Assembly: GCA_965246885.1 (NCBI GenBank)
Contig: OZ251992.1
Span: 704,001 to 768,000 of the forward strand
Reading direction: 5' to 3'
Length of the DNA stretch: 64,000 bases
Source of the DNA: Abditibacterium sp.
Lineage (GTDB): Bacteria; Armatimonadota; Abditibacteriia; Abditibacteriales; Abditibacteriaceae
A model generated the notes under the pieces. That model did no database searches. It was not told the DNA's origin and saw only the letters and a list, made by a program, of their open reading frames with translations. Positions within the stretch are counted from its first letter, which is position 1; every line of letters starts with the position of its first letter. Made by a program: the position numbers and the translations under genes. Shown here piece by piece: positions 12,918 through 60,706 of this stretch.

Positions 12918-13080
12918 TCACCGGTACCGGCGAACCGTCGGCGCGCCTAATTCTTCCGTCCGCCGGGTTGCGCCGATGGTTCACCGGCATACGCGAACGG
13001 TTGGCGCAGCTAATTCTTTCGTCGGCGCGCATGGGCGGCTGACTCCCGTAGCTAACTCAACGGTTCCCGCAGGTCTGTCA
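12918..13080. repeat. 21-bp-phased mosaic array (8 degenerate units)
   Basis: 16-nt units every 21 nt from 12918 (TCACCGGT...) to 13065 (TCCCGCAGGTCTGTCA); 63-nt super-repeat TGGTTCACCGG at 12914 and 12977. Confidence 0.75.
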
Positions 13081-13179
13081 ACGGAAGCGCACGGCCCGCG
13101 TCTTTGAGTGGTGACATACTTGTGCCTCTTGACGACTCCGCATCTTGATTAGCGCAAGGGGCGGGAAACGGGAACATGT

Positions 13180-13204
13180 GGACGAACACAAGATTCGCCC
13201 CTAC
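13180..13204 (-). repeat. REP-like element (GTAG plus short palindrome)
   Basis: Minus strand reads GTAG-GGGCGAA-TCTTGTG-TTCGTCC. Confidence 0.6.
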
Positions 13205-13258
13205 AGTTGACTGGCGGGAATATCGAAACGCAACGGCAATGGGGAATTTTAACTTCGC

Positions 13259-13849
13259 ATGAAACTCGGTCTCATGGGCGGCACCTTTGACCCGATTCAT
13301 TTTGGGCACCTGTTCATCGCCGAAGAAGCGCGCGTGCGGTGCGGGTTGGATGAGGTGTGGTTCGTGCCCAACAACACGCCCGCCCACGTGCAGGGCAAGG
13401 CGGCGCAGTTATCGGCGGAGGAGCGGTTGGCATTGTGCGAGTTGGCCGTCGCGGATAACCCGCATTTCAAGGTGTCTGCGGTCGAGGTCGAGCGCGCCGG
13501 GAAGTCGTACGCCTTCGATACGCTGGGGGAGTTGGGCGCGCAAACGGGGGCGGAACTGTTTTGGATTTTGGGCGCCGACGCCATTGGTGAAGTTTTGACG
13601 TGGTATCGCGGGGCGCAACTGTTCGAGATGTGCCGCTTCGTCGCGGCGTCGCGGCCCGGATTTTCGCTTCAAACGGCGCAAGGAACCCTGAACGCCGCCC
13701 AAGCCTCGCGCGTCGAGTGGATGGAAGTTCCCGGTTTGCACATCGCTTCGCGCGACCTGCGCGAGCGAATCGAGCGCGGCCAATCCATCCGCTACCTCGT
13801 GCCCGACGCGGTGCGAGTGGCCATTGAAACGCGCGGCCTTTACAGGTAG
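13259..13849 (+). CDS. nadD: Nicotinate-nucleotide adenylyltransferase
   Basis: GGTFDPIHFGH, ILGAD, IASRDLRER, YLVPDAV; adjacent to rsfS. Confidence 0.96.
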   Translation: MKLGLMGGTFDPIHFGHLFIAEEARVRCGLDEVWFVPNNTPAHVQGKAAQLSAEERLALCELAVADNPHFKVSAVEVERAGKSYAFDTLGELGAQTGAELFWILGADAIGEVLTWYRGAQLFEMCRFVAASRPGFSLQTAQGTLNAAQASRVEWMEVPGLHIASRDLRERIERGQSIRYLVPDAVRVAIETRGLYR

Positions 13850-13874
13850 AATGGGAACCGACCTCTTTCATTTA

Positions 13875-14339
13875 ATGACAGCCACCCAATTCCAAACCGA
13901 AGAACGCGAAGCGCCGCCCAAGCCCACAATTGACGTGGCCGCGCTCAAAACGCAGATCGCCGGAAACAAAACCGCGCTCATTTGCCAAAGCGCCGACGAA
14001 ATCAAGGCGCTCGATATTACCGTCCTCGACGTGCGCGACCAAACGATTTTGACCGACTACTTCATCATCGCTACGGGCACCTCGAACACCCACATCCAGT
14101 CCATCGCCCGCAACGTCCTCGACAAACTGCGCGACAACGGCATCCGCGCCCGAAGTGAGGGCAACGCCGATTCGTTCTGGGTTGTCCTCGACTACGGCGA
14201 TGCCATCCTCCACGTCCAAACCGAGGAGACACGCGAGTTCTACGACTTGGAGCGTTTATGGGCCGACGCCCAAATCTCCGTCTGGCCCGCCGAAATCACC
14301 GTCGAAGAAACGCCCATTAAACGCGGGCTTTTTCGGTGA
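13875..14339 (+). CDS. rsfS: Ribosome silencing factor
   Basis: KALDITVLDV, DYFIIATGTSNTH, WVVLDYGDAILHV, REFYDLERLW; start uncertain (13851 or 13875). Confidence 0.95.
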   Translation: MTATQFQTEEREAPPKPTIDVAALKTQIAGNKTALICQSADEIKALDITVLDVRDQTILTDYFIIATGTSNTHIQSIARNVLDKLRDNGIRARSEGNADSFWVVLDYGDAILHVQTEETREFYDLERLWADAQISVWPAEITVEETPIKRGLFR

Positions 14340-14382
14340 GGCGGTGATATACTGGGCGTGGACGCCCACAAGGAGCCACCTC

Positions 14383-14640
14383 ATGTATCGGAAAATCGCT
14401 TTGACTTCGGTCACAATCAACGTCGCGCTCGTGTTCGCTTGGCTAGTCGTCTTCATGCCTTGGTGCTTGGATCGCTTCAAGGAAGGCAAAGTTGAGATGC
14501 CCGCGCCCGTGATGTTGCTCATCAACATCTCGCATTTCCTCACCAATCCGCAGACCATTGTGCCGACGCTGATGCTCTTGCTCCTTAGTTTCTTCGGTGC
14601 GAAGGCGCTCCGCAAGCGGACGCCGCGCCGCACTGTGTAA
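14383..14640 (+). CDS. Small two-TM membrane protein (85 aa)
   Basis: AGGAG RBS at 14371; two hydrophobic helices; loop FKEGKVEMPAPVMLLINISHFL resembles the PilC/GspF periplasmic loop. Confidence 0.7.
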   Translation: MYRKIALTSVTINVALVFAWLVVFMPWCLDRFKEGKVEMPAPVMLLINISHFLTNPQTIVPTLMLLLLSFFGAKALRKRTPRRTV

Positions 14641-14688
14641 GAAGTCCCACAATTTTCCCCGTGACAGCCGCTAAACCCGCTTGCCCTG

Positions 14689-14717
14689 TTGAAACGCGCC
14701 CTCTCCCTTGATATAAT
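14689..14717 (+). promoter_or_regulatory. Near-consensus sigma70 promoter with extended -10
   Basis: TTGAAA-N17-TATAAT preceded by TGn. Confidence 0.65.
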
Positions 14718-14720
14718 GCG

Positions 14721-14750
14721 AAGCGCCGAAATTAATTTCGGCGCTTTTTT
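14721..14750 (+). terminator. Perfect 26-bp palindrome plus T tract (terminator of the nadD-rsfS transcript and/or operator)
   Basis: AAGCGCCGAAATTAATTTCGGCGCTT followed by TTTT. Confidence 0.7.
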
Positions 14751-15070
14751 GGTTCCGCGATGACCTTGCACTTGACCTTCCCGACCACGACGCCGTGCCT
14801 TTTGGCATTGGCGAAGGGTGCCACTCATCTCGATAGTGGCGCGCATGGTTGGCAGATGGGCGGCGAGTCGGGCGGGGAACGAAGCATCCGCGCGCGCGGG
14901 CAGTATGGGTTTCGACATCCGAGGCGGCACCCTCAAACGAGGAGGAGCCATTGCCCCCGACCCGAACCCGGCCCGATACCGAGTGACGCGCGCTTTCCCA
15001 AGCCTTCGTCCTCCCATGCGGCGCCGGGTTTTTTTGTTGGTTTTTCTTCGGCCATCGGGGGAGAGATGCC

Positions 15071-15811
15071 ATGACGCAGCCGAACCAACGCGCGGCGGCG
15101 GCGCGGCCCCTCGACCTGAAGGAAGAATACGAAGCGCAGCGTCGGAGCGAGCGGGCGGGCGTGTTCGTGTTGGCCGCGCGGCGCGCGCTTCAACGCGGCG
15201 AACTGGAGGAAGCCAAAGTTCAACTCAAGCAAGCCTTCGCCGTCAACCCCGGCGACGAAAAAGCGGTGGACGTGTTTGGCGACCTCTACCTCGCCGAAGG
15301 CGAAACCGAAAAGGCGCTGGAACTGTTCGAGAAAGCGTTCGCGCGCTTTCCGGGCAACGCCAGCTTCGAGGAGCGCGCCGCGCTGTGCCGCCTCGATTTG
15401 GCCGAAATGGAAGCCGACAAAGTCGTGGCTCCTCTGCTGGTCGAAACGGGCGACAAAGGGAAAATCTTCGAGCGGTCGCCGCAAAAGGCACTTTCCCTGT
15501 CGGTGCTCCTGCCGGGGGCGGGGCAGTTCTACAACGAGGAGAACGAGAAAGGAGCCGCGCTGTTGGGCGCCTATTTACTCTCGTCGGTGTGCTGGTTTTA
15601 CCCGTTGTTTACCCAACTGTCGAACCAGACGCTCCACGATCGCTTGAACTTCGGCATGGCGATGGCGAACCTGAGCGGCTTGGGCGCGCTGATGTTCAAA
15701 GCCGGGACGGTGGTCAGCACCGTCGTTTACATCTACGCACTGTGGGACGCGAAAACCGCCGCCGACAAGTGGAACAAAGAGCGCCGCAAGGCGCTGGGGT
15801 TGGAAAAGTAA
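15071..15811 (+). CDS. TPR-containing membrane protein
   Basis: Two to three TPR-like motifs, then SPQKALSLSVLLPGAGQFYN and TM helices ending IYALWDA. Confidence 0.8.
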   Translation: MTQPNQRAAAARPLDLKEEYEAQRRSERAGVFVLAARRALQRGELEEAKVQLKQAFAVNPGDEKAVDVFGDLYLAEGETEKALELFEKAFARFPGNASFEERAALCRLDLAEMEADKVVAPLLVETGDKGKIFERSPQKALSLSVLLPGAGQFYNEENEKGAALLGAYLLSSVCWFYPLFTQLSNQTLHDRLNFGMAMANLSGLGALMFKAGTVVSTVVYIYALWDAKTAADKWNKERRKALGLEK

Positions 15812-15841
15812 GGAGAAACGCAGAAAGGAGAACTTGCAATT

Positions 15842-16483: not shown

Positions 16484-16514
16484 GCTGTGAGCGGCCCCGC
16501 TTCCTTGGGGCCGC

Positions 16515-17534
16515 TCATCCCCCCGCCAGCCGCCTTCCTATTTCTTCTGGCGAGCAGGTAAACTGGGCGGCGCCCAGTTCGATGGCGACGCGGGGCATGC
16601 CAAACACGACGCAGGAGGCTTCGTCTTGCGCGAAGGTTTCGCCGCGCGCTTGGCGCACCCGTAGGAGGCCGCTTGCGCCATCGCTTCCCATGCCCGTCAA
16701 TAGAATCGCCGTTGCGCGCGAGCCATACGCGCGGGCGACGGAGTCGAACAGCACTGTGACCGACGGGCGATGGCCGTCGCGCGGCGGGGTTGTGGACAAG
16801 CACACGCGGCCTCCGGCGGTGACTTCCAGATGATGGTCTTCCGGCGGGAATAGCGCCGTCCCGATGGGCGCGATCTCGCCGTCGCGGGCCAGCCTTACGC
16901 GCACGCGGCAACCCTCATCCAACCACGTCACCAACCCCGCCAAGAACCCCTTCGCCACGTGTTGTACGCATACCACTGGAACTGGAAAGTCGGCGGGAAG
17001 CGCGGAAAGGATGGTCAGCAGCGCGCCGGGGCCACCCGTTGATGCGCCAATGGCGACGACCCCACGCGGCGCGCCAAGCGGTGTCGCGTTGGGAAGCGGC
17101 GCAGGCGCGGCGAGCAGGGGCGGCGTCCAGACGCCGCGCCGCCCAATCACCGGCACGCGCGCCAGCATCCGTAAGCGGGCGACGAAGGCCGGGGCTTGGG
17201 TGGGGAGCGTCGGGCGCTCGATGCAATCCAGCGCGCCCGCATCCAACGCCGCGCGGCGGGCGGCGTCATCGGGAGATGGACAAAACAGCAGAATCGGGCA
17301 GGGCAGGGCGCGCATAATTTGGCGCGTGAGTTCCAGCCCGTCCACAAGCGGAAGCGCAGCGTCGGCGCACACCAAGTCCGGGCAGGCGGCGGGCAACATC
17401 GCTATGGCTTCGCGTCCATGCGCGGCCACGCCCACCACCTCAATGTCCGGCGTGCCCGCCAACAGCCGCTCCAAAGCGCGGCCCGCCAAGGGAGAGGCGA
17501 CCACGAGCAACACGCGCACGCGCGCGCCCGTCAC
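16515..17534 (-). CDS. cheB: Chemotaxis methylesterase REC-CheB (WspF-like)
   Basis: GASTGGP, VQH, HRPSVTVLF, LTGMGSDGA, VVFGMP; N-terminal REC. Confidence 0.95.
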   Translation of the reverse strand: MTGARVRVLLVVASPLAGRALERLLAGTPDIEVVGVAAHGREAIAMLPAACPDLVCADAALPLVDGLELTRQIMRALPCPILLFCPSPDDAARRAALDAGALDCIERPTLPTQAPAFVARLRMLARVPVIGRRGVWTPPLLAAPAPLPNATPLGAPRGVVAIGASTGGPGALLTILSALPADFPVPVVCVQHVAKGFLAGLVTWLDEGCRVRVRLARDGEIAPIGTALFPPEDHHLEVTAGGRVCLSTTPPRDGHRPSVTVLFDSVARAYGSRATAILLTGMGSDGASGLLRVRQARGETFAQDEASCVVFGMPRVAIELGAAQFTCSPEEIGRRLAGG

Positions 17535-19783
17535 GCCAACCTCCGCAACGCCTCGACCAGCGCGTTCCCGTCAAAGGCGCTTTTGATGATGTAAGCATCC
17601 GCGCCCGCTTCCGCGCCGCGCAAGCGGTCTGCCTCCGAACCCAGCGACGTTACGAGCAGAACCGGCATCTCCGCGTATTGGGCCTCCTCCCGTATCCGCG
17701 CGGTCAGCGCCAAGCCGTTCAAGCGCGGCATCTCGATGTCGGAAACGACCGCGTCAAAACTCCCCGCCGCCAACTTCTCCCAGCCGTCGAGACCGTCAAC
17801 GGCGACCGTGACGTCATACCCCGCCGCTTCCAGAATCCGCTTTTCTTGCGTGCGCACCGTAATGGAGTCCTCGACGAGCAACACGCTTTTGGGGCGCGGC
17901 GCGTCGGGCGCGGGGATGGGCTGAGGCGCGCTCCCCCGTGTCGCGCGGTGCAGGAGTTCGGCGGCATCGAGCACGAGGCACACCTCGCCGTCTTGCAGAA
18001 TCGTCGCACCCGCGACGTGCGGCACCCGGTCGGCAAGCGCGCCGAGTGGCTTGAGGATGATTTCCTGCTCCTCTAACAGGGCATCCAATATCAACCCCGC
18101 GCGCTCCTGCCCCACTTCTAAGACCACGCACGGCGCGGCGCCTTGCGGCTGCGATGGCAAACCGAGCACGTCCGATAAGCGCGCGAGCGATGTCGGCGCG
18201 CCGTTCCACAAGACCGTGTCGCGCCCGCCAAACGGAAACACATCTTCCGGCGCCAAACGAAACAGGCCGCGCACCGCCTCAATGGGTAGGCCGAAGGTTT
18301 GCCCCGCTCCGGCGCGCACCAGCAGCACCCGCGTCGTTGCCAGAGTGACCGGCAAGGACAGCCGAAACAGGCAGCCGCGCCCCGGATGGGACTCGACTTC
18401 CACCGTTCCGCGCAAGCGCGCCACCCCTGCGCGCACGATGTCCAACCCCACGCCGCGCCCCGATAGCTCCGACACTTCCGCGCGCGTCGAAAAGCCGGGA
18501 GCGAAGATTAGCTCGATGATCTCGCGCGTGGTCAGGGCGTCGAGTTCCGCTTCGCTTCGCAGCCCTTTACGCGCCGCCGAAGCGCGAATCGCCGCCGCGT
18601 TGAGGCCGCGCCCGTCGTCTTCGACTTCGACCACAATGCGCTGCGCCGTGCTGTATCCGCGCAGTCGCAGCGTCGCCGTTTCGGGTTTGCCGGTGTGGGC
18701 GCGCTCTTCGGGCGATTCCAAACCGTGATCAACCGCGTTGCGAATCAGGTGCATGAGCGGGTCTTTAAGGGCTTCCAGTATCCGCTTGTCGGCGTGCGTG
18801 TCGCCGCCTTCGACTTCGAGGCGCACCGCTTTATTAGCCGTGCGCCCCAAATCGCGCACGGTGCGCGGAAACAGGCCAAAGAGCGTGGCCAAGGGCAAGA
18901 GGCGCACGCCGCGAATGGCGGCTTCCATCTGCCCGACGACAGTCGCCATTCTGTCCAAGTCGCCGCCCGCGATGCCCAAACGCCCCAACGCGCCGTCCAA
19001 TTGTTCGAGCCGCTCGCTTTGCGCTTGCACCAACCGCTCCAATTCGCGGAGCGCCCGCGCGTCGCCGGGAGCGTCGGGCGTGCTCATCAGTTCGCGCAGC
19101 GTGCGTTTGGCCGCCGAGGTCGCGCGTCCCCACTCGTCGCGCAACTCTTCGAGCGCCACCAGTTCGCCGCGCCCGCGCACCGCGCGCGACGTGGACACCA
19201 CCAGTTCGCCCGCCATCGAAAGCAGTCCGTCCAACTTCGCGGGGTCAACGCGCATCGTTTCGATGCTCCAGCCCGCGTCCGCCGCCTTCCCGCTCGCAGT
19301 GGCGGACGGCGGCGGAGCGATGGCAGACGTCTGGGGTTCGGCGACAGAGGTTTGGGGTTCAGTGACAGACGTCTGGGGTTCGGCGACAGACGGCGGTGGC
19401 GGAGCGGCGGACGTTTCTCGAAGCGAGCCGAGCAGCGCTGGAACATCCACCGACGCCGGTTGGTCGCCCAGCGCCTGCGCCACCAAAGCGCGCATGCCGT
19501 CCAAGGCGCCGAGCAACCGCTCGACGCTGCCCACCGCCAGAAAACTCTGTCCGCGCGCCGCCGCGCCGAGGGCGTCCTCGAAGCCGTGCGCAAGCGTTTC
19601 CACTTCGCTTAGACCCAACATCCGCGCCGCGCCCTTGAGCGAGTGCGCATGCCGAAAGACATCCGCGAGCGTCGCATTATCCTGCGGGTCGCTTTCCAGA
19701 CGCAACAACCCCTCGTCGAGGTGCTGCAAATGCTCCTCGCTTTCGGCGCCAAATAAAGCGCGCAGTTCGCGGTCGAGAATCAT
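17531..19783 (-). CDS. cheA: Hybrid CheA kinase Hpt-HATPase-CheW-REC (WspE-like)
   Basis: FRHAHSLKGAA, HLIRNAVDHG, DDGRG, SGRGVGLD, CheW domain, C-terminal REC. Confidence 0.95.
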   Translation of the reverse strand: MILDRELRALFGAESEEHLQHLDEGLLRLESDPQDNATLADVFRHAHSLKGAARMLGLSEVETLAHGFEDALGAAARGQSFLAVGSVERLLGALDGMRALVAQALGDQPASVDVPALLGSLRETSAAPPPPSVAEPQTSVTEPQTSVAEPQTSAIAPPPSATASGKAADAGWSIETMRVDPAKLDGLLSMAGELVVSTSRAVRGRGELVALEELRDEWGRATSAAKRTLRELMSTPDAPGDARALRELERLVQAQSERLEQLDGALGRLGIAGGDLDRMATVVGQMEAAIRGVRLLPLATLFGLFPRTVRDLGRTANKAVRLEVEGGDTHADKRILEALKDPLMHLIRNAVDHGLESPEERAHTGKPETATLRLRGYSTAQRIVVEVEDDGRGLNAAAIRASAARKGLRSEAELDALTTREIIELIFAPGFSTRAEVSELSGRGVGLDIVRAGVARLRGTVEVESHPGRGCLFRLSLPVTLATTRVLLVRAGAGQTFGLPIEAVRGLFRLAPEDVFPFGGRDTVLWNGAPTSLARLSDVLGLPSQPQGAAPCVVLEVGQERAGLILDALLEEQEIILKPLGALADRVPHVAGATILQDGEVCLVLDAAELLHRATRGSAPQPIPAPDAPRPKSVLLVEDSITVRTQEKRILEAAGYDVTVAVDGLDGWEKLAAGSFDAVVSDIEMPRLNGLALTARIREEAQYAEMPVLLVTSLGSEADRLRGAEAGADAYIIKSAFDGNALVEALRRLA
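19321..19391. repeat. 21-bp-phased array in frame within the cheA linker
   Basis: TGGCAGACGTCTGGGG / CGACAGAGGTTTGGGG / TGACAGACGTCTGGGG / CGACAGAC; encodes (SVxEPQT)x3. Confidence 0.9.
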
Positions 19784-19808
19784 GGGACGAATAAGAAGTT
19801 GGATGCCA

Positions 19809-25955: not shown

Positions 25956-27463
<1,508 letters not shown>

Positions 27464-27889: not shown

Positions 27890-27948
27890 GTCCTTCCGCC
27901 GAAAATTCCCAGATTTATTTTTTCCGCCCGCCGCTATCGGCGAGTCGG

Positions 27949-28082
27949 TGACAGACGTGCGGGAACGGGCGAACGCCGTCCGACACCCATTCCCAGACGT
28001 CGGTGACCGGATGACAGGCAGCGTTCGCCCGTTCCCGCACGTCTGTCATTCGTCGGCGCGCGTCTGTCATCCGTCGGCGCGG
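27949..28082. repeat. 21-bp-phased mosaic array containing a perfect 28-bp inverted repeat
   Basis: Units at 27949, 27970, 27991, 28012, 28033, 28054, 28075; 27949-27976 is the exact reverse complement of 28021-28048. Confidence 0.9.
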
Positions 28083-29776
28083 CCCGTTAGTTGGGTCAGC
28101 TCGCGCAGCAACGCCATCGGGGTGAGGGGTTTAGCGAGGTGGGCGTTGAAGCCCGCGTTGTGGGCACGCTCGCGGTCGGTCGCGCCCGCATATGCGGTGA
28201 GGGCGAGGGCGGGCAAGCGCTGAAACGACGAGGGCGTTTGGCGAATGCGTTCCATCAGTTGATAGCCGTTTTCGCTTGGCATCCCGATATCCGATACCAG
28301 CACGTCCGGCTTCCACTCTTGCAGCACGCCCCATGCTTCTCCCACCGAAGCGGCGGCGCGCGTTTGGGCGCCGTGCATTTTGAGGATCGTCGTGACCAAG
28401 GCGCGCGCTTCGGGTTCGTCGTCCACCACCAACACGCGCAAATCCCGCAACGCGCCGCCTTGGGTTGGGGGCGCGGCGTGCGCTTCCTCTTTGTGCCCTT
28501 CGGCAACGGCGCGAATGGGAAGCGACACGGTGAACTTGGCGCCGCGACCCAACCCCTCGCTTTCGACGCGCACCGTGCCGCCGTGCATTTCGACCAAATG
28601 GCGCACGATGGACAAGCCCAGCCCCAATCCGCCGTGCGCGCGGGTCATGGACGAGTCGGCTTGGCGGAAGCGGTCGAAGACGTGCGGCAAAAACTCCGGC
28701 GCGATGCCCTCGCCGGAATCTTGCACTTCGATGACGCTCGTCGAATGGTCGCGGCGCAGCGTAAGACGCACTTCGCCGCTCTTGGGCGTGAACTTGATGG
28801 CGTTGCTCAAAAGGTTCCACACCACCTGCTGCAAGCGCGCGGCGTCGCCCAACACGAGGGCGTCTTTGTCTTCGATGTCGAGCGCCAAGCGGACGTTTTT
28901 GGCACGCGCGGCGGGTTCGGCGGAAGTGTAGGCCGCCGACACGACGGGCGCCAACTCAAGTGGCATGGACTCGATGACCATTTTGCCCGTGATGATGCGC
29001 GAGACTTCCAGAATGTCGTCCACCAAGCGCGTTTGCGCCCAGCAGTTGCGCTCGATGGATTCTAAGGCTTGCTCGCGCGCTCCGTCGTCCAACTGGCCAG
29101 AGCGAAGCAGGCTCGACCAGCCGACAATGACGTTGAGCGGCGTGCGCAACTCGTGCGAGAGCGTCATCAAGAACTCGTCCTTGGCGCGGTTGTTCCCCTC
29201 GGCTTCTTCGCGCAATCGTTCGGCTTCGCCGCGCGCAGATTCGGCTTCGCGGCGGGCCTCTTGTTCGCTACGCAGGAGGTCGTCCTTTTGGGCGTTGAGC
29301 AAGTGCAACTCTGCCGTGCGCGCGCGCACTTCGCCTTCTAACTCGTCGGGGCTACGCATGGAGAGGGCGCGTGGAATGGCGGGCGCCAGCGCCAGAACAG
29401 TGGCCCACGACACAACGGCAGTGACGAATTTGATTAGCCCAGCCAAGCGGTAGACCGGGTGGTAGAACATTACGATGTCCATAAAATGCGTCGTGCCGCA
29501 GGAAACGATGAACATCCCGAAGAGAATGAACAAGCTGCGAAACGGCAAAGTCGCTTTGCGCCGGAACACGAAATACAGCAGCACTACAGGGATGGCGAGG
29601 TAGGCGGCCCAGATAGCGAAGTCGGAAGCGTTGTGCAGCCAGATTTCGCCGGGTGTCCAAATCCCGCACACGCGACGGGGCATATACCCGTCGGTGGAAA
29701 AGAGGTTGCGCCAAAACCCCGGCGAGGAGAGTGGGTGAACGGGCGGCATCCCGTCAGAGGAAGGCATCGGAGGCAT
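28067..29776 (-). CDS. Hybrid histidine kinase with ETR1-type ethylene-binding domain (EBD-HisKA-HATPase-REC)
   Basis: SDFAIWAAYLAIP, FIVSCGTTH, LIKFVTAVVS; LSHELRTPL, NLLSNAIKFT, GGLGLGL, REC; GAGGAG RBS before ATG 29776. Confidence 0.9.
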   Translation of the reverse strand: MPPMPSSDGMPPVHPLSSPGFWRNLFSTDGYMPRRVCGIWTPGEIWLHNASDFAIWAAYLAIPVVLLYFVFRRKATLPFRSLFILFGMFIVSCGTTHFMDIVMFYHPVYRLAGLIKFVTAVVSWATVLALAPAIPRALSMRSPDELEGEVRARTAELHLLNAQKDDLLRSEQEARREAESARGEAERLREEAEGNNRAKDEFLMTLSHELRTPLNVIVGWSSLLRSGQLDDGAREQALESIERNCWAQTRLVDDILEVSRIITGKMVIESMPLELAPVVSAAYTSAEPAARAKNVRLALDIEDKDALVLGDAARLQQVVWNLLSNAIKFTPKSGEVRLTLRRDHSTSVIEVQDSGEGIAPEFLPHVFDRFRQADSSMTRAHGGLGLGLSIVRHLVEMHGGTVRVESEGLGRGAKFTVSLPIRAVAEGHKEEAHAAPPTQGGALRDLRVLVVDDEPEARALVTTILKMHGAQTRAAASVGEAWGVLQEWKPDVLVSDIGMPSENGYQLMERIRQTPSSFQRLPALALTAYAGATDRERAHNAGFNAHLAKPLTPMALLRELTQLTGRADG

Positions 29777-42488: not shown

Positions 42489-42664
42489 TCCCAGACGTCC
42501 GGCGACGGCTGACAGGCGTTTGTCAGCCGATGACAGAAGCGCGCCACTCGCCGACAGAGGCGCGCCACTCGCCGACAGAGGCGCGCCACTCACTGGCAGA
42601 AGCGCGCCACTCACTGGCAGAGGCGCGCCACTCACTGGCAGACGTCTGTCAACGGCTCACCGAT
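42489..42664. repeat. 21-bp-phased mosaic/tandem array between convergent genes (9 units)
   Basis: TCCCAGAC.., TGACAGGCGTTTGTCA, 5x (T/C)G(A/G)CAGA(A/G)GCGCGCCA-CTC(A/G)C, TGGCAGACGTCTGTCA, TCACCGA. Confidence 0.93.
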
Positions 42665-45119
42665 GCGTGGTGGCGCTATGCCGACCGGGGCCGACCTCGT
42701 AGGAGTGCAGTTGGCCGTCCGCATCCCATGTGTTCAAATGGGCGCGGATGCCGTCGGGGATGTGAATGTCGAGGTCATGGCCCGCCCCACCCCCGTTGGG
42801 CTGGGAACGGAACTCGATAATGCCGTGCGGAGTGTGGCAGGCCAGCGAGAGGGCGCCCAAGTCGCCCAACAGGGGCGCGATGCGGGTTTCGCTCCATCCC
42901 GGAACGAGCGGCTGGAACCCCGCGATGTGGAAGAGGAGCAAGCTGAGCGGCGCCATCGGGCAGTGGCTCCACTCGCTGTTCGAGTCGGGCGTCGCGTGCC
43001 AGTCCTCTTGGAGGGTATTGTTCCATTGGACGGACGGCAGAGTCGCCCAGACTTCGCGCAGTTCGCGCAGCACGACATCCATGCGCCCGAAGCGCGCCAA
43101 CGCTTGCAGGCGCCAGATGGCGTTGGCGGGGTAGGAGTAGCCCATCTCCGGCGGGCAATCGGCCAGACTCTGGATGCTCGCCGCCCTCTGTACCGACGGA
43201 TAGAAGCCGAACAGCAGGGCGGTTGCGAGGGAGCGGTCGCAGGTGCGCGGGCGCCCTTCCTTGCGCTCCCAAGGCAGATTGGCCACGAAGAGGCCGCGCT
43301 CGGCGCACCAAAAGCGCGCTTGTGCCGCCTCCACGATTTGCTTGCTGCGCACGCGAAGCGTTTGGGCGAGCGACTCTTCCCCGAACATCTCGCACAGGGG
43401 CGCAAGCGCCTCGCGCAGCATCGCGGCGAGGTAGAGATTGAACGCGCACTCCTTGTGGCGCTGCTGCTCATAAGCGTCGTGGTCTATCCACACGGATGGC
43501 ACGCCCAAGTTCTCGACGGGCACGAGTCCGTCCTTGCGCAAGGTTTCGAGGTAGTCGGCGAAGCGGAGCAAGCGCTCGAAAGGGGTAGCGACGGCATCGC
43601 GGTCGCCGGTGTCTTGGTAGTGATGCCAGCAGTCGAAGCCAAAGCCCACGCCGTGATCGAGAAGTGGCCCCCAGCGCGTCGCCCCGACTTGGCGCTGCAT
43701 GACGCGGCACAGGCGGTCATAGCCCGGCCAGCAGTCGAGAAAGAAGCCGTCGGGCGTTTGGCCTTGGCTCCACGTGCGCAAGAAGCGGCGCGGGATGCGG
43801 GTGTCGCCGAACGCGGCGCGCAGCACGGGCAACTGGTGCCCGCAGTCGCCGGAATACTGTTGCCGCTCGCGCGCCATGCCGTCCACGACGGTTTCCTGCG
43901 CGCTGTTGACGAGGGTATTTAGCGAGGCGTCGAACAAGCGCTGAAGCGGCGCTTCGGAGCACACGATGCGCGCGGCGGGCCAAGGCGCGGAGCGCCTGAG
44001 TATATCCACGCGCTTCACCACAACGGGGCGGCTGTTGCCTCGGATGTGCAGTTGCAGCCAGCGCAAGGACTCGTACTCGAACGCCAAAAAGCGCGTCGTG
44101 CCTTCTGCGCAGACGACCTGCGACCACGCCCAGAACGGCGCGACCAACTTGGGCGGGGCGTTGGCGTCGTGCGCTTCGAGGTTGAGCACCTCGATGACCG
44201 TGCCTTGCGGCGCTTCGACTTCCACGAGCGGATACCCGACGATTTGCTCCGGCCACTCGAACGACAACAGGTGCGCGGTTCCATCCTCGGCGGGTGGGAC
44301 GAGCCAACCGGCGTCGGTGCGCGCGACTTCGAGCGGCGCCCCGACGCTGAAGCAGTCGGGCAGGAAGAACTCGAAGTAATCGCGCGGGTCGCGGTGCCAC
44401 CGGATCTGCCACGCGGCGCGTAACCTAAGGGCGGGGAGAAACTCCTCGCGTAGCATCGGAACGTCCCTTTGGAGAAGAACGCCTGCCCCCGGCAAAAGAG
44501 CGGCGTCGTTGAGGTAGTTGGCGACCCCCGCGCTCCCAGAGGGCGCATTGGCGGGGCCGGGCAGTTCGGCGGCGCTCATCCAGCGAGAAGCGTTAGGGGC
44601 GAAGTCGGGGGAGTTCGTGCTCCATCCGGCGGGGTGCTCGCGGGCATCAAAGCGCTCTTGCAGGGCGCGCAAAAAGAAGCGCGGCGCCCCACCCGGCGGG
44701 CGCGAGCGATCCAAACAGCAGCGCCAAGCGGCGTCCGAGACGAGTTGCTGGCGCGCGCCGCCGCGCTCTTCGATGTCCAAGCGCAGCAGCAACCCCGGCC
44801 ACGACAGGGCCGAGGTGCCGTCGCCGTGCCCGTAATAAAGCACCTCGATCCCTATGACATTCGCGCCGCGCCGGAGGTAAGCCGACAGGTCGAGCGGATC
44901 GGCTTCCAAGGCGCGCGGGTCACACGGCGCGGGGCCGTTCTGGACGCGCTCGCCGTTGACCCACAGCCGGTAGCGCGAGTCGGCGGCAATCCACCCGCGC
45001 GCCGCGAGCGGCTCGGCGTTGAGGTGCAGTTCGCGCCGAAACAGCGCGAAAGTAACGGGCAAAGTACGCCCTGCGGGCAGCCAAATCCAGCGCGCGGGCG
45101 ACAGGTCGAGGGGAATCAT
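42657..45119 (-). CDS. Alpha-L-rhamnosidase-like protein (GH78)
   Basis: ARWIW, ADSRYRLWVNG, VDGMARERQQYSGD, NNTLQEDW, SHCP, TPHGII. Confidence 0.85.
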   Translation of the reverse strand: MIPLDLSPARWIWLPAGRTLPVTFALFRRELHLNAEPLAARGWIAADSRYRLWVNGERVQNGPAPCDPRALEADPLDLSAYLRRGANVIGIEVLYYGHGDGTSALSWPGLLLRLDIEERGGARQQLVSDAAWRCCLDRSRPPGGAPRFFLRALQERFDAREHPAGWSTNSPDFAPNASRWMSAAELPGPANAPSGSAGVANYLNDAALLPGAGVLLQRDVPMLREEFLPALRLRAAWQIRWHRDPRDYFEFFLPDCFSVGAPLEVARTDAGWLVPPAEDGTAHLLSFEWPEQIVGYPLVEVEAPQGTVIEVLNLEAHDANAPPKLVAPFWAWSQVVCAEGTTRFLAFEYESLRWLQLHIRGNSRPVVVKRVDILRRSAPWPAARIVCSEAPLQRLFDASLNTLVNSAQETVVDGMARERQQYSGDCGHQLPVLRAAFGDTRIPRRFLRTWSQGQTPDGFFLDCWPGYDRLCRVMQRQVGATRWGPLLDHGVGFGFDCWHHYQDTGDRDAVATPFERLLRFADYLETLRKDGLVPVENLGVPSVWIDHDAYEQQRHKECAFNLYLAAMLREALAPLCEMFGEESLAQTLRVRSKQIVEAAQARFWCAERGLFVANLPWERKEGRPRTCDRSLATALLFGFYPSVQRAASIQSLADCPPEMGYSYPANAIWRLQALARFGRMDVVLRELREVWATLPSVQWNNTLQEDWHATPDSNSEWSHCPMAPLSLLLFHIAGFQPLVPGWSETRIAPLLGDLGALSLACHTPHGIIEFRSQPNGGGAGHDLDIHIPDGIRAHLNTWDADGQLHSYEVGPGRHSATTHR

Positions 45120-45189: not shown

Positions 45190-45289
45190 CGAAATCCCGA
45201 TTTCTTCGGAGGAAATCGGGATTTCCTCTGAAGAAACCCGGATGCCGCGCAGGGGAATCGGTATTTCCCTCGAAGAAATCGGGATTCGC
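45190..45289. repeat. Second 21-bp-period array type (GAAATC-NN-GATTTC core)
   Basis: Units at 45190, 45211, 45232, 45253, 45274; GAAATCCCGATTTC-N7-GAAATCGGGATTTC is a perfect inverted repeat. Confidence 0.8.
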
Positions 45290-53940: not shown

Positions 53941-54758
53941 GGTGTGTCTCCTTCTGTTTTAGGGGCTTTGCCCACGACGACTTCGGTTGGACGCAGGACA
54001 TGGCCTTTGAGCGTCCAACCGGGACGCGCCACGCTTTGCACGAGGCCGTCTTGTTCCGGCGCGACGGGAACTGTCGCCACCGCTTTTTGTCCGTGCGCGT
54101 CGAAGTGGCCTGCCGGTGTCGGCAACAGTTCGACTTCGCATGTGAGAAGCGCCTGCTCGAACTGGTCGCGCACGAACGCGATGTTGTCGCGGACTTTGTC
54201 GGCGCGTAGCGCGTTGGGCGCGAGGTTTTGGGCGGTCTGCGCCGTCTGATGAAGCGCCATTTCACGGTCGAACTCTTCGAGTGCGTCGAACACGAACAGC
54301 AGGGGGCGCAGAAGGGGCTTGACGTGTTCAAATACGAAGTCGCGCTTGTAATTCAACATTTCGGCGTGCAACGCGTCGAAGAGGCGCTCCGACTCGGAGT
54401 TCCTATGCCGCATGCCCGCGACATCGGTGCGCACCGCTTCAAGGCACCCCTGCATTTGCGTGATGGCCCCGGCCATCGCGCCAAGGGCATCGAGCAAATC
54501 TATCTCGTCGGGCGCGTGCTCTGGCTCGAGCGCCGCCATCGGCGCGTCAGTGGCAGACGTCTGGGAACCATTCCCGGACGTCTGGGAACCGGCGGCGGGC
54601 GTCGGCGGAACGGTTACGGGTGGCGCTCCGCGCCCCACGACCCTCCCGCGAACGCCCGCGAGCATCGCGGACACACTGGGTTTGGCTGTCGGCGCGTCTG
54701 GGGCGGCGGCGGGAGAAGCGCCGACAAACGCCAATTGGGAATTGAAGGAGTTGAACAT
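53937..54758 (-). CDS. grpE: GrpE-family nucleotide exchange factor
   Basis: Coiled coil, LLFVFDALE, FDAHGQKAV, RPGWTLKGHVLRPTEVVV; ATGA overlap with hsp70. Confidence 0.85.
   Translation of the reverse strand: MFNSFNSQLAFVGASPAAAPDAPTAKPSVSAMLAGVRGRVVGRGAPPVTVPPTPAAGSQTSGNGSQTSATDAPMAALEPEHAPDEIDLLDALGAMAGAITQMQGCLEAVRTDVAGMRHRNSESERLFDALHAEMLNYKRDFVFEHVKPLLRPLLFVFDALEEFDREMALHQTAQTAQNLAPNALRADKVRDNIAFVRDQFEQALLTCEVELLPTPAGHFDAHGQKAVATVPVAPEQDGLVQSVARPGWTLKGHVLRPTEVVVGKAPKTEGDTP
54551..54592. repeat. Two-unit 21-bp array in frame within the grpE linker
   Basis: TGGCAGACGTCTGGGA-ACCAT-TCCCGGACGTCTGGGA; encodes GSQTSGN-GSQTSAT. Confidence 0.8.
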
Positions 54759-54764
54759 GAGTGG

Positions 54765-56207: not shown

Positions 56208-56636
56208 GAGAACTTTGGAGGTGTTGGTTTTAGAACAACATCTTGGCGCTTAAAGCTGCGCCACTGCTGGAAGAGGAGTTGACACCGTTATTGCCACTTG
56301 GACGGCGGCACTTTGGCTTTATAAAGCCACAGTTAACGCGGCGGAAACAAAGGACTCAGGGAGAACCCTTAAATTTCGCGCAGATGACGGCGTTTCCAGC
56401 AATCAGGATTAAACGGCGTGTCAAGCGGCGGCGCGGGGAAAAGCTACTGCTCCATAGGGAAAACTCGCGCCGCGCGCGCAAACAGTCGCGTCAGTGAAAA
56501 TCGGGTCTGGGACGGACACGCAAAACCTGCCGCTCCCCCGGCGCCGCGCGCGGTTTCGGGCGCCATTTTCGGGTGCTATCCTCAAATGCACCCTGCGCGC
56601 CGCAACACCCCGCGATGCGCCGGACGGTTTTCTTCC

Positions 56637-59600
56637 ATGAGCAAGTGTCCCTGCGGTTTCTGCCACCTTCACGTCCATTCCGAGTATTCGCTTCTCGACG
56701 GCGCCAATCGCTTGCAAGACTTGGCCAAGCGCGCCGCCGCGCTCGATATGCCCGCCCTCGCCCTCACCGATCACGGCGTGATGTATGGCGCCATAGACCA
56801 CTACGTCGCTTGCAAAAAGGAAGGCATCAAACCAATCTTGGGCGTCGAAGCCTATGTCGCGCCGCGCACCCATTTGGACAAGGATTCGCAACTTGACTCG
56901 CAGAAGAAGACCTGCCACCTGACTCTTTGGGCGAAGAACAAAAAGGGCTACGAAAATTTGGTCAAGCTGACCTCGACCGCGCACCTCAAGGGCTTCTATT
57001 ACAAGCCGCGCATTGACCACGACCTCCTCGCGCAGCACTCCGAAGGCATCATCTGCGGCAGCGCGTGCTTGGGCGGCGAAGTGCCGCAACTCATCATGGC
57101 CAAGAAGTTCGACGAAGCCGTCGAGCGCGCCCTGATGTACCGCGACCTCTTCGGCAAAGAGAACTACTTCTTGGAACTGATGGATCACGACCTGACGGGG
57201 CAGGGCGAGGTGAACGACCGACTCATAGATATTCACCACCAAACGGGCATCCCGCTCATCTGCTCGAACGATGCCCACTACTTGCGCCGCGAGGACGAGG
57301 AGATGCACAAGATTCTGGTCGCCATCGGAACCAACTCCCAGATACAGAACATGGCCTTGCACTACGGGCCGAACTTTTACCTTAAAGACCGCGAGGAGAT
57401 GTGGGAAAAGTTCAAGCACGTCCCGTCCGCCTTGGAAAACACCATGCGCATCGCGGACATGGTGGATTTGGAACTCGACCTTAAGACCACGCACTTCCCC
57501 AATTTCGACGTGCCCGCCGGACACGACAAGACCTCCTTCTTGCGCGAACTGTGCAAACAACGCTTCGATAAGCGTTACCCCGTCGGCCACCCGCGCCGCG
57601 CCGAGGCCATTCCGCGCATGGAATATGAACTCCAAGTCATCATAGACAAAGGCTATCCGGGCTACTTCTTGGTGGTGCAGGACTTCATCAACTGGTCGAA
57701 AGAGCGCGGGATTTTGGTCGGTTGCAGGGGTAGCGCGGCGGGGTGTCTGGTGTCTTATGTGTTGGGCATCACTAACCTCGATCCGCTCCCTTATGGTCTC
57801 TTGTTCGAGCGCTTTCTCAACCCGGAACGCGTCTCGATGCCCGACATAGACGTGGACTTTCCCGACAAGCGCCGCGACGAGGTGATGAAGTACGTGACCG
57901 ACAAATACGGCAAGGACAAAGTCGCCCAAATCATCACCTTCGGAACCCTGCAAGCCCGCGCCGCCGTGAAGGACACCGCGCGCGCGACCGGCCTGGAACT
58001 CAAACTCGCCGACCAAGTCGCCAAGCTCATCCCGGCCATCCCCTCGCATCCGATGACCATTGCCAAAGCGCTGGACGAGGTGAAGGAGTTGCGGGACATG
58101 TACGAGTCCGATTCGACCGTGCGCACCCTGCTTGACCGCGCGCAAAACATCGAGGGCATGACGCGCCACTCCTCGCGCCACGCGTGCGGCGTCGTGATTG
58201 GAGATGCGCCACTCGATACGATGGTGCCCCTCGAAGAGAAAGATGGGCTGGTCGTCACTCAATACCATTCCAAGGCCATTGAGAAGATCGGCCTCGTCAA
58301 GATGGACTTCCTTGGGCTAACCAACAACTCCGTTATAGACGAAAGTTTGGCGCTTATCAAAGAGCGCTACAACGAAGACATAGATTTAGAAACCCTCGAC
58401 CTAACCGATAAGAAGGTTTACGATATGATGTCGCGGGGAGATGGTATCGCGGTGTTTCAGATGGAAGGCAGTGGCATGAGGAACCTTCTGCGTGAGATGA
58501 AGCCGGAAAATATGGAGCACATCATCGCGCAGATTTCCTTGTATCGCCCCGGCCCGATGGACGACATCCCAACTTACATCAAGGGACGGCACGGCGGCGC
58601 AGTGACCTATCCCCACCCCAAGTTGGAACCCATCCTGAAAGACACCTACGGCATGCTTCTCTACCAAGAGCAAGTCATGCGCGCCGCGCAAGAGTTAGCG
58701 GGCTTTACCGGCGGCCAAGCGGACGAACTGCGCGGCGCAATGGCGAAAAAGAAAGCGGACTTGATGGCAAAGCTCAAGCCGCTTTTCGTGGATGGCTGTG
58801 TCCAGAACAAGATAAAGCGCGACGACGCAACCGACATCTTCGACAAGATGGAGTCCTTTGCCAAGTACGCGTTTAATAAATCCCACGCCGCTTACTACGG
58901 GTTGGTTTCTTACTGGACGGGCTACCTCAAGGTGCACTACACCTCGGAATTTCTGGCGTGCAACATGACTTCGCGGCTGGATGCCAAGCCCAAGCTGCTC
59001 GCGGTCATCGAAGATGCGCGGCGGCATGGCATCGAAGTGTTGCCGCCTGATGTCAACGAGTCGAACCAAGACTTTACTGTTGTGGGCGCCGCCAAAAACT
59101 CGCCGATTCGCTTCGGGCTGCTCGCCATCAAGGGCATCGGCGAAGGGCCGGTCGGCGCCGTCTTGGAAGCGCGGCGCGAGGGCGGCAAGTTCGTCTCGCT
59201 CCACGACTTTTGCGAGCGCGTGCCGCTTCGGGGGTGCAACAAATCGTGCATCGAAACCTTCATCAAGGCGGGGGCGTTCGACTCGATACAAACCAATCGC
59301 TGCGCCCTTTTGGAAGGTTTGGACGCAGCACTCACTGATGCCAAGAGCACGTTGGAGGGCAACCTCTCGATCTTCGGTGAAGCGCCCACTGAAGCGGGGC
59401 GTCCCAAAACGATGGGTGTTTTGCCGGAGTGCGAAGACTTCGGCAGCGCACAACGCTTGGCGTGGGAGAAGGAGTACATAGGACTGTATGTGTCGGATCA
59501 CCCCCTGTCTCCTCTGCGCGAGTATTTGGAATCGGCGGCCATCCCACTGTCGAAAATCACCGAGGAACGGGCGCTGTCGGACGGCGCGCGGGTGACGGTG

Positions 59601-60500
59601 GGCGGCCTTGTGACGACGGCGCAAAAGCGGGTGGACAAAAACGGGCGCGCGTGGGCGATTTTCACCCTCGAAGATTTGACGGGCCAAATTGAGGTTCTGA
59701 CCTTCGCCAAAGCCTACGAGAAGTGCGGCGAGCACATTAACGAGGACGCCAAGCTCTTAGTGACGGGGCGCCTGAGCGCCGATTCGCGCGGCGGCTTCGG
59801 CGGTAACAGTGGCGGCGAAGAGGGCGAATCGAACGAGGACGTGCGCTTTAAAATCATGGCCGACGACATCGAAATCATCCCCGAAGACGCCGAAAGCGCG
59901 GCGGGCAAGCGCGCCAAGCCGCTCGAAGAGCGCATCAGTGGCGCCAACGAAAAGGCCGACAAAGCCGCCGAGCGCACCGCCAACGGCACCGGTTGGAACG
60001 GCGGAAACGGCAACGGCGCAAATGGTGGCGCCGCCAAGGGGCACAAAATCCTTGACTCGCTCCCGAAAAACGGCGGGGCGAACGGCAACGGACACGGCGC
60101 AACCAATGGCAACGGGAGTAACGGTGGCGGCATCTCGATTAACCGCTCCTCGGCCCCAACTTTTGTGCTTCCCCCGCCCGATGCCGCGCCGCCCGCCCAG
60201 TTTCGGGCGACCGAGGAAGGGCCGCTCCCGATCCCCCACATTTTCGAGGTGCCCTCCGAAGCCGAGGCGGACGTGCACTTGCACATCCCGCCGGACATGG
60301 CTTCGCAAGCCGTGATTCACAAGTTGTATACCGTTGTGCGCCGTCATCCCGGCACGCAGCAGGTCTGGCTGCATCTCGACAACGGCCAAGAGATGGTGCA
60401 GATGAAAGTTTCGGCGAGCTATTGGGTGGCCGCGACCCCGCAATTCTGCGAGGACGTCGCCGCCCTGCTCGGCGACGAGAATATCGTCCCCCCGCTTTGA
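56637..60500 (+). CDS. dnaE: DNA polymerase III alpha subunit
   Basis: HLHVHSEYSLLDG, LTDHG, RGSAAG, FERFLNPERVSMPDIDVDF, KMDFLGL, YAFNKSH, OB fold. Confidence 0.98.
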   Translation: MSKCPCGFCHLHVHSEYSLLDGANRLQDLAKRAAALDMPALALTDHGVMYGAIDHYVACKKEGIKPILGVEAYVAPRTHLDKDSQLDSQKKTCHLTLWAKNKKGYENLVKLTSTAHLKGFYYKPRIDHDLLAQHSEGIICGSACLGGEVPQLIMAKKFDEAVERALMYRDLFGKENYFLELMDHDLTGQGEVNDRLIDIHHQTGIPLICSNDAHYLRREDEEMHKILVAIGTNSQIQNMALHYGPNFYLKDREEMWEKFKHVPSALENTMRIADMVDLELDLKTTHFPNFDVPAGHDKTSFLRELCKQRFDKRYPVGHPRRAEAIPRMEYELQVIIDKGYPGYFLVVQDFINWSKERGILVGCRGSAAGCLVSYVLGITNLDPLPYGLLFERFLNPERVSMPDIDVDFPDKRRDEVMKYVTDKYGKDKVAQIITFGTLQARAAVKDTARATGLELKLADQVAKLIPAIPSHPMTIAKALDEVKELRDMYESDSTVRTLLDRAQNIEGMTRHSSRHACGVVIGDAPLDTMVPLEEKDGLVVTQYHSKAIEKIGLVKMDFLGLTNNSVIDESLALIKERYNEDIDLETLDLTDKKVYDMMSRGDGIAVFQMEGSGMRNLLREMKPENMEHIIAQISLYRPGPMDDIPTYIKGRHGGAVTYPHPKLEPILKDTYGMLLYQEQVMRAAQELAGFTGGQADELRGAMAKKKADLMAKLKPLFVDGCVQNKIKRDDATDIFDKMESFAKYAFNKSHAAYYGLVSYWTGYLKVHYTSEFLACNMTSRLDAKPKLLAVIEDARRHGIEVLPPDVNESNQDFTVVGAAKNSPIRFGLLAIKGIGEGPVGAVLEARREGGKFVSLHDFCERVPLRGCNKSCIETFIKAGAFDSIQTNRCALLEGLDAALTDAKSTLEGNLSIFGEAPTEAGRPKTMGVLPECEDFGSAQRLAWEKEYIGLYVSDHPLSPLREYLESAAIPLSKITEERALSDGARVTVGGLVTTAQKRVDKNGRAWAIFTLEDLTGQIEVLTFAKAYEKCGEHINEDAKLLVTGRLSADSRGGFGGNSGGEEGESNEDVRFKIMADDIEIIPEDAESAAGKRAKPLEERISGANEKADKAAERTANGTGWNGGNGNGANGGAAKGHKILDSLPKNGGANGNGHGATNGNGSNGGGISINRSSAPTFVLPPPDAAPPAQFRATEEGPLPIPHIFEVPSEAEADVHLHIPPDMASQAVIHKLYTVVRRHPGTQQVWLHLDNGQEMVQMKVSASYWVAATPQFCEDVAALLGDENIVPPL

Positions 60501-60501
60501 A

Positions 60502-60706
60502 TCACCGGGTCGCGCCATCCGCTCACCGGGTCGCGCCCATCATTGGCCGGGCTACGCCAATCACTGGCGCGACCCGGTGAGCGGATGGCGCGACCCGGTG
60601 AGCGGATGGCGCGACCCGGTGAGCGGATGGCGCGACCCGGTGAGCGGATGGCGCGACCCGGTGAGCGGATGGCGCGACCCGGTGAGCGGATGGCGCGACC
60701 CGGTGA
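60502..60706. repeat. 21-bp-phased array: 2 units, 1 degenerate unit, then 7 inverted identical units
   Basis: TCACCGGGTCGCGCC(A/C) x2, then TGGCGCGACCCGGTGA-GCGGA x7 (60565-60706); phase is kept through the inversion. Confidence 0.95.

Follow-up and report, generated by a model that had tools for sequence, protein, structure and literature searches.

Evenly spaced arrays of 21-bp dyad units as candidate protein-docking sites in an Abditibacterium genome

A 64,000-nucleotide stretch of an Abditibacterium sp. genome (contig OZ251992.1, positions 704,001 to 768,000; hereafter the window) carries at six loci runs of short, imperfect palindromes that recur every 21 bp, and these runs raise the question of what such arrays are and what they might do. 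We suggest, with somewhat less than even confidence, that they are phased protein-docking arrays organising the chromosome, akin to a dispersed version of the phage 186 CI wheel site, the binding itself being putative. No description of such arrays was found in the literature.

Direct parsing of the six loci bears out the architecture given in a preliminary description of this DNA: all six consist of 8 + 8 + 5 units in a single continuous 21-bp register that is kept even through an orientation flip at 60565. The regularity far exceeds chance: on C1, lag 21 yields 3701 exact 12-mer matches, lag 20 yields 12 and lag 22 a single one; 291 of 304 GACGTC pairs no more than 130 bp apart are separated by a multiple of 21; and, when different loci are compared, 479 of 482 main-family alignments fall in one common phase. 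The vocabulary of 8-nt half-sites said to be shared among the loci is likewise borne out, since 58% of half-sites recur in at least five arrays vs 0% after per-array column permutation; TGACAGAC, an example of a specific main-family half-site, is kept at 151 places. The units had also been called quasi-palindromic, and here the dyad is present but loose: fully complementary halves occur in 15 of 1429 units, and complementarity is typically 3-5 of 8. CGTC sits at the centre of a dyad that has no loop, the 5-nt spacer too has weak dyad symmetry, and a strong pyrimidine-purine step pattern runs through the 21-bp frame. Some arrays are strings of identical units. The arrays are not built on a hidden 7-bp period, since identity within them is 0.59 at lag 21 but 0.29 at lags 7 and 14, nor are they a CRISPR array, the units being variable, 16 nt long and separated by 5-nt spacers, and the genome's own CRISPR repeat forming a separate family. 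An Rfam search of the window returned the 16S gene only.

A profile search adds one or two weaker edge units to several of the six arrays, all of which belong to the main family and none of which is assigned a strand. The array at 12897..13085 (nine units) lies between divergent genes, and an 82-bp portion has a copy of 98.8% identity at a distance of 512 kb. The array at 19300..19425 (six units) is in frame within an inter-domain linker of ORF 17531-19783 (-), which we take, from its sequence, to be a CheA-like kinase, and that at 27928..28095 (seven to eight units) spans the 3' end of ORF 28067-29749 (-) and part of the stretch upstream of the 16S rRNA gene (25956-27463, -). Convergent genes flank the array at 42489..42677 (nine units) and co-oriented genes the one at 54551..54613 (three units), while the array at 60502..60711 (ten units, seven of them near-identical), which contains the flip, starts directly after the stop of ORF 56637-60500 (+). 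All six arrays of the preliminary description thus stand, and a seventh was overlooked, a weaker 21-bp array of a sister subfamily at 45191..45274 (no strand assigned), 2.6 kb from the array at 42489. This seventh array is among the rare exceptions to the spacing described below. At 19321, 27949 and 54551 the arrays are bridged without any difference by short-read contigs from X1 and X2, two DNA runs that possibly represent the source sample, and these arrays are therefore not an assembly artefact; neither run yielded empty sites or variants at arrays.

Further copies, the existence of which had been proposed as a test, number in the hundreds. Profile search recovers 226 main-family arrays genome-wide, where controls gave 1 and 3, and about 290 with the sister subfamilies, in a genome made up of a chromosome and a 72-kb second replicon. 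Most are 5-9 units long, or about 150 bp (median, 7 units; 79% of arrays of at least 3 units have 5-9), and the modal length is 7 x 21 bp, about 147 bp. Outside called genes lie 183 of 216 arrays; those inside genes use all three reading frames (9/8/4), and arrays overwrite the linkers of core genes. Arrays occupy 142 of 2089 tandem, 55 of 436 divergent and 35 of 437 convergent junctions. Because three frames are used, every junction orientation carries arrays and the units pair poorly, the constraint on the arrays acts on DNA.

The main result on the family is its spacing. Only 2 of 215 gaps are shorter than 4 kb, against 47.3±5.5 expected under uniform placement and 45.9±5.5 under placement at gene junctions (2000 draws each; the lowest simulated count was 28), and the coefficient of variation of the gaps is 0.60 vs 0.99 expected. 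Spacing averages about 12 kb with a mutual exclusion of about 5 kb, and density is even along the chromosome, at 12-19 arrays per 250 kb. Exclusion reaches beyond the main family: of 43 arrays of other sequence, 5 have a main-family array no more than 3.5 kb away vs 42% of random points, and among 40 further weak intergenic peaks 18% lie close to one vs 43% expected. Arrays with closer neighbours have lower scores (rho 0.21, p 0.003). Long-range order is absent: past 6 kb g(r) stays near 1, and each gap is uncorrelated with the next. A model in which arrays insert blindly at random, but never within 5-6 kb of one another, yields the observed gaps, as insertion immunity would. The large gaps bear no relation to low-GC islands (rho 0.03), and genes with ribosomal-like codon use are not farther from arrays (p 0.13).

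Individual arrays vary by whole-unit changes and in-place inversion. Comparison with a 97-99% identical contig shows three orthologous arrays to have changed by +6, -4 and -1 units, and because lengths are narrow although orthologues differ to this extent, the data suggest that selection maintains the narrow length. The view that slippage is insufficient holds across the family and fails within arrays, where slippage and in-place inversion account for the variation. Sequence has also been copied between loci (the 82 bp at 98.8% noted above and 169 bp at 100%), sister subfamilies share ends, and one 169-bp sister element has inverted ends. In array-bearing gene linkers the net length change is a multiple of 21 in one of five genes (5 x 21 bp), the orthologues being only 65-83% identical and the linkers themselves variable. 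The 25-bp flanks of 207 main-family arrays, whose ends are fuzzy, have no excess of direct repeats (p 0.6), and local hopping left no signal. Of the micro-mobile element proposed earlier, the copying between loci survives, whereas target duplication, local hopping and an adjoining transposase were not found.

A candidate binder emerges from the sister arrays, two of which stand directly upstream of small (~210-240 aa) genes for helical+FN3 proteins, of which this genome has two (C1:525622-526317 and C1:1335829-1336473). The pairing of array and gene holds across the phylum: a 21-bp array, each different in sequence, lies upstream at 12 of 13 full-length P0002-family loci (at the remaining one the period is 22), and a lag-21 peak lies 243-410 bp upstream of the match at 10 of 11 full-length P0001-family loci, each count including this genome's own gene. 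A lag-21 score of at least 31 is reached at 9 of 11 P0001-family loci vs 0 of 16 FN3-only controls. P0002 is modelled as a helical domain with an FN3-like sandwich (pLDDT 88.9), and a fold search that covered residues 136-231 gave a match with Z 12.1, rmsd 2.4 and 89 aligned. It is predicted to homodimerise through a long helix, with a score of 0.84 (best control, 0.00), at least 92% of contacts shared between runs and pLDDT at least 85. Of 30 solved pairs 20 attained that mark, as did 1 of 23 single chains. Neither P0001 nor P0002 matched a known DNA-binding family, helix-turn-helix (HTH) families included. No helical+FN3 gene stands beside main-family arrays, the six listed ones included; the genes' own upstream arrays score z 2.5 (P0001) and 0.0 (P0002) against the main-family core, and genomes rich in helical+FN3 genes have few, unrelated arrays. 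Searches for another partner found no paralogue family enriched beside arrays, none among called or uncalled ORFs adjoining them, neither DUF6261 nor DUF4469, and no match in this genome to an all-helical candidate partner. Both helical+FN3 cassettes adjoin copies of one REP family.

In phage 186, the operators bound by CI are spaced at two turns, and a stretch of about 147 bp could be wrapped by seven dimers (PMC3675496). The arrays share this wheel-type geometry, with dyads set at two-turn intervals along about 147 bp, their modal length; and, as weaker flanking sites join the CI wrap (PMC3675496), so the arrays have degenerate edge units. They differ from the 186 system as set out there, with one locus, three operators and an HTH repressor, in forming hundreds of arrays and in having a candidate protein that lacks an HTH match. 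On the docking reading, protein dimers would line up along each array on a single DNA face, one dimer probably bound per 16-bp dyad and about seven coating or wrapping ~150 bp. The likeliest candidate binder would be one of the two helical+FN3 proteins, orphan copies of whose upstream arrays may have spread by patchwise copying between loci. Bound complexes might then serve as loop anchors or twist barriers, in which case, we propose, new arrays would be neither gained nor kept near existing ones. Three observations favour the phased binding arrays of the preliminary description: lengths vary little, spacing is even, and a protein family predicted to be dimeric is linked to such arrays.

Bacterial chromosomes are thought to be split into supercoiled domains of roughly 10 kb, and we know of no fixed, sequence-encoded domain boundaries at that scale. 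A more ambitious version of the docking reading, in which an operator-plus-gene cassette became a scaffold, with ~290 nucleosome-length arrays each wrapped by a ring or row of FN3-fold dimers and delimiting ~12-kb domains on the chromosome and the 72-kb replicon, spaced by mutual exclusion, strikes us as rather unlikely; were it true, bacteria would have a position-encoded system of domain boundaries that relies on a new class of DNA-binding protein.

Such spacing could also arise with no host benefit at all, if the arrays were a selfish, non-autonomous element whose copying by recombination or transposition is inhibited within ~5 kb of a protein-marked array. Target immunity is known for Mu, Tn7 and Tn3, and the array spacing has its trait, new copies being excluded near old ones. 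Arrays far apart that are almost the same in sequence, ends common to sister subfamilies, gaps that fit a hard-core insertion model with no long-range order, and confinement to this lineage all fit; yet mutual exclusion extends to arrays unrelated in sequence, length is narrow despite fast slippage, net length change is a multiple of 21 in only one of five gene linkers, and the signals of target duplication and local hopping are absent. The Tn3 transposase (PF01526) was not found in the genome by a search whose controls worked, nor was the Mu/TnsB C-terminal family (PF09299), for which the controls gave no match either. We consider this explanation somewhat unlikely; if insertion immunity is nevertheless the cause, the arrays would be a very small mobile element that gauges kilobase distances with no recognised transposase. 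Under either this or the docking reading, the widespread helical+FN3 family gains a testable function; about 290 candidate sites have been mapped and two candidate proteins named.

The arrays might instead be chromosome-organising sites read through DNA shape by a housekeeping factor (gyrase, SMC, HU or another nucleoid protein), the helical+FN3 genes having only supplied, or sharing, the array type. Exclusion across subfamilies of differing sequence, the pyrimidine-purine pattern, the even density and a main family with no adjoining cognate gene all point that way, but specific half-sites such as the one kept at 151 places exceed the needs of shape reading, and congeners share the housekeeping genes yet lack arrays in their sampled DNA, so that we judge it improbable. 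More doubtful still is a REP/BIME-type family moved by one of the genome's RAYT-like transposases and acting as RNA hairpins. The mosaic arrays in both orientations, the GACG/CGTC core, some in-frame copies, the genome's five Y1_Tnp genes and the REP family beside both cassettes recall such elements. All five Y1_Tnp loci, however, lack a 21-bp array and are flanked by other, ordinary hairpin repeats or by none on a side. The earlier REP/BIME analogy fails both on this absence of RAYT flanking and on the units, which are not stem-loops with an unpaired GTAG or CGTC end tag; units pair poorly, convergent junctions are not favoured, and the genome's pooled REP clusters clump (CV 1.35; 21 gaps <4 kb vs 12 expected). 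Minisatellites that arose independently by slippage, or repeats coding for heptads, in either case without a common function, would suit the shifting unit number, the runs of identical units and a 21-bp period of seven codons, but they are refuted by half-sites and phase common across loci and by mutual exclusion, and the extragenic majority (183/216) and the three frames further reduce their probability to almost nothing.

Cyanobacterial small dispersed repeats, SDR1-8, reportedly described by Elhai et al. in 2008 as discrete units of 21-27 nt that insert at empty sites and have a secondary structure, resemble the arrays in having very short units of ~21 nt that are dispersed, nested in arrays and found in genes; SDRs are not known to be evenly spaced, and the arrays overwrite linkers, a clean 21n insertion being seen in one of five genes. 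Plasmid iterons and centromere arrays share a two-turn repeat of copy-specific sequence beside a presumed binder gene, but they work with Rep, ParB or ParR, whereas here dyads occur in both orientations, the gene is helical+FN3 and most arrays are orphans. The arrays are many, dispersed, mostly extragenic and lineage-restricted, and, like REP and REPIN elements (PMC3733652; bioRxiv 10.1101/2022.05.22.493013) and BIMEs, they number in the hundreds as species-restricted palindromic repeats in mosaic clusters, with some in-frame copies within replication and repair genes. Unlike those elements, they lack a flanked RAYT or tagged stem-loop, keep a strict two-turn phase and exclude one another where REPs cluster. 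The HIP1 octamer is likewise palindromic and non-randomly distributed chromosome-wide, at 10-90 kb, with a proposed role in chromosome structure (PMC5861425); it is, however, a single 8-mer with a statistical periodicity, whereas the arrays are phased over ~150 bp, with hard short-range exclusion and no long-range period.

The system appears restricted to this lineage. No comparably dense system occurs in the sampled DNA of 12 other genomes of the genus, and the arrays therefore cannot be a general need. A core motif common to all subfamilies was not established (p 0.06), the sister subfamilies standing barely above foreign arrays. Motif pairs number 89 in this genome vs 0-3 in 40 relatives. 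A GTDB-wide pattern scan returned at least 97 stretches, of which the 80 examined were mostly chance or two-unit doublets, and a metagenome scan returned one locus.

The strict 21-bp phase that the preliminary description claimed for six loci holds at all of them, with units of two 8-nt half-sites plus a 5-nt spacer in one register throughout each locus. These loci, which all lie in the window (positions 704001-768000 of the main contig, C1), belong to a genome-wide family: a symmetric profile seeded on them settled on 226 arrays comprising 1500 units in this genome (3.56 Mb, two contigs, 62.5% GC), versus one array in reversed and three in complemented C1. By autocorrelation, exact 12-mer matches on C1 peaked at lag 21, with 3701, whereas lag 20 gave 12 and lag 22 a single one. 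Among GACGTC pairs no more than 130 bp apart, 291 of 304 were separated by a multiple of 21, and 479 of 482 cross-locus alignments kept one phase. The proposed half-site vocabulary is likewise borne out, as 58% of half-sites are present in at least five arrays versus 0% in permuted controls. The units had also been called quasi-palindromic; dyads are present, but only loosely so, with 15 of 1429 units fully complementary. A sequence-blind lag-21 scan added 82 strong peaks, many of them sister subfamilies with different sequence. GACGTC is scarce on C1 (683 sites, 245 inside arrays, versus 1349 expected from 5-mers), and its scarcity outside arrays may mark a restriction or methylation site.

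After fusion of neighbours no more than 200 bp apart, C1 holds 216 arrays, and only 2 of their 215 gaps are shorter than 4 kb, versus 47.3±5.5 expected if arrays were placed uniformly and 45.9±5.5 if they were placed at gene junctions; the lowest count in 2000 random draws was 28. The gap CV is 0.60 versus 0.99 expected. Intergenic sister arrays lie within 3.5 kb of a main-family array in 5 of 43 cases (random points, 42%). A union of 264 arrays, comprising 207 main arrays (9 weak ones dropped) and 57 sister arrays (25 peaks resembling protein repeats or a simple 7-mer run removed by hand), has a median gap of 11.9 kb, a CV of 0.55, no correlation between successive gaps, and g(r) of 0.07-0.1 below 4 kb, 0.6 at 4-6 kb, and ~1 beyond. 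The arrays therefore keep a minimum distance and form no lattice. A random-insertion model with an exclusion distance of 5-6 kb gives the same gaps, and density is even at 12-19 arrays per 250 kb. Forty weaker intergenic lag-21 peaks likewise avoid known arrays (neighbouring lags give 0-14 such peaks); adding 23 of them yields 287 arrays with a CV of 0.51. The ribosomal-protein cluster sits in an array-free gap of 27 kb, among the largest (C1:1786392-1813482), and 21-bp arrays at 2525558 and 2544848 flank a large CRISPR array at ~2530000-2545000 (~217 repeat copies genome-wide). The second contig (72 kb), with what we take to be Rep-like and ParA-like genes, has five main-family arrays at intervals of 8-23 kb.

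Two analogues had been suggested: cyanobacterial small dispersed repeats, reportedly studied by Elhai et al. in 2008, and REP/BIME elements. We reject the latter. Each of five Y1_Tnp/RAYT-like genes (C1 10567, 567387, 1335203, 1381523, and 1930539) has its own hairpin repeat family and none is flanked by 21-bp arrays; moreover, the pooled REP clusters are clumped (CV 1.35), whereas the arrays keep apart. Nor did any family of paralogues show enrichment next to arrays.

Array length is narrowly distributed (5-9 units in 79%, median 7) despite whole-unit changes between orthologues. Three arrays have orthologues in a contig of genome G010 that matches an island of this genome at 97-99% identity. 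Their unit counts differ by +6, -4, and -1, always in whole units, and a segment of 12 bp flanked by short inverted repeats has been inverted in place; unit gain and loss with in-place inversion thus generate mosaics and orientation flips without loss of phase. This 32-kb contig (G010:C24; L006, L222) is possibly misbinned or recently transferred, the rest of G010 being without the motif. Two identical copies of a 169-bp sister-family element, which has inverted ends, stand in direct orientation 4.9 kb apart at C1 ~668010-668180 and ~672900-673070, with four genes between. Called genes, for which positions without tool output come from our own caller (3014 genes), contain 33 of the 216 arrays, mostly in linkers. 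The 21 mid-gene arrays use all three reading frames (9/8/4), and constraint is evident at the DNA level. An array replaces the native linker in five core genes, whose names, like that of CheA, are presumptive labels given from their sequences: UvrA (168 nt between anchors; four orthologues, 144-153 nt), PrmA (43 residues versus 8, a net 5 x 21 bp), RecG (linker 74 versus 49), urea carboxylase (78 versus 25, counted by hand), and DnaX (74 versus 111 in one orthologue). The UvrA edge units still code homologous residues and fit the profile better than orthologues do, in one case with profile-chosen edges. We found neither a target-duplication signal nor local hopping at arrays.

Two sister arrays immediately precede genes for helical+FN3 proteins, one encoding P0002 (231 aa), the other P0001 (214 aa); a place upstream of such genes is habitual for arrays of this kind. 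Among full-length loci, 12 of 13 in the P0002 family (three truncated hits excluded) have an upstream 21-bp array, all different in sequence, and the thirteenth has an array of period 22 (L164 near 2127); in the P0001 family (one split and two fragment hits excluded), 10 of 11 have a lag-21 peak 243-410 bp upstream, and 9 of 11 score at least 31 versus 0 of 16 FN3-only controls. In those cases in which a promoter could be recognised by eye, its -35 box is preceded by the array. P0001 has 508 relatives among 50% clusters, with a Pfam fn3 match in 56 of 122 aligned members. P0002 is predicted to fold into helices 14-27, 39-79, 104-116, and 122-127 plus an FN3-like sandwich, and to homodimerize through the long helix (score 0.84, best control 0.00; among solved pairs 20 of 30 attain that mark, among single chains 1 of 23; contact agreement is 92% or more and pLDDT 85 or more). 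A 236-aa protein of another type in G019 (contig C277; L208:11215-11923), by eye without an FN3-like tail, also has a 21-bp array upstream, which suggests more partner families. Both helical+FN3 cassettes of this genome (C1:525622-526900 and 1335000-1336800) adjoin copies of one REP family with only 13 clusters on C1, and several foreign cassettes have REP-like hairpins downstream.

We tentatively favour the arrays as putative dimer-docking sites, by analogy with the geometry that PMC3675496 describes for the 186 CI wheel, where sites are two turns apart and ~147 bp could be wrapped by seven dimers. Dyads two turns apart would place candidate dimers on one DNA face, with some seven of them coating or wrapping 147 bp. 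Such complexes would anchor loops or form barriers to twist, and nearness would make a second array useless or harmful. That weaker arrays have closer neighbours is in line with such a cost. Orphan arrays would spread by patchwise copying between loci. The arrays would act like a phased operator or a wheel site repeated along the whole chromosome, and the preliminary interpretation is partly supported: its phased-binding reading gains support, its REP/BIME analogy does not. Against a link to P0001 and P0002, only two such genes occur in the genome, neither beside a main-family array; their upstream arrays fit the main-family core unevenly; and four genomes with such genes have few, unrelated arrays (368 kb sampled). 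A selfish element with insertion immunity would explain the gaps as well as docking does and is the somewhat less probable reading, though a search of the genome found no Tn3 transposase; one for a Mu-type transposase gave no match in the genome or in its controls. The literature searched, which took in only a minority of subscription papers, describes neither the arrays nor their pairing with genes nor spacing of this kind, and the even-spacing rule is an addition for which we could find no precedent there; we drew on PMC5861425, PMC3675496, bioRxiv 10.1101/2022.05.22.493013, PMC3733652, and PMC4679880.

The family is narrowly distributed. The 89 occurrences of the paired motif in this genome compare with 0-3 per genome in 40 relatives, and no 21-bp arrays were seen in 380 kb of G012 or, one coding heptad aside, in 329 kb of 11 other genus genomes (3 sampled for <7 kb), whereas this genome has 7 per 100 kb. 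A 16-bp palindrome centred on GACGTC forms doublets, its two units 21 bp apart, that recur among the matches listed in several Myxococcota/deltaproteobacteria-like genomes, where they are intergenic, near position 3000 of L060, L065, L074, L077, L079, L080, L082, L097, and L102.
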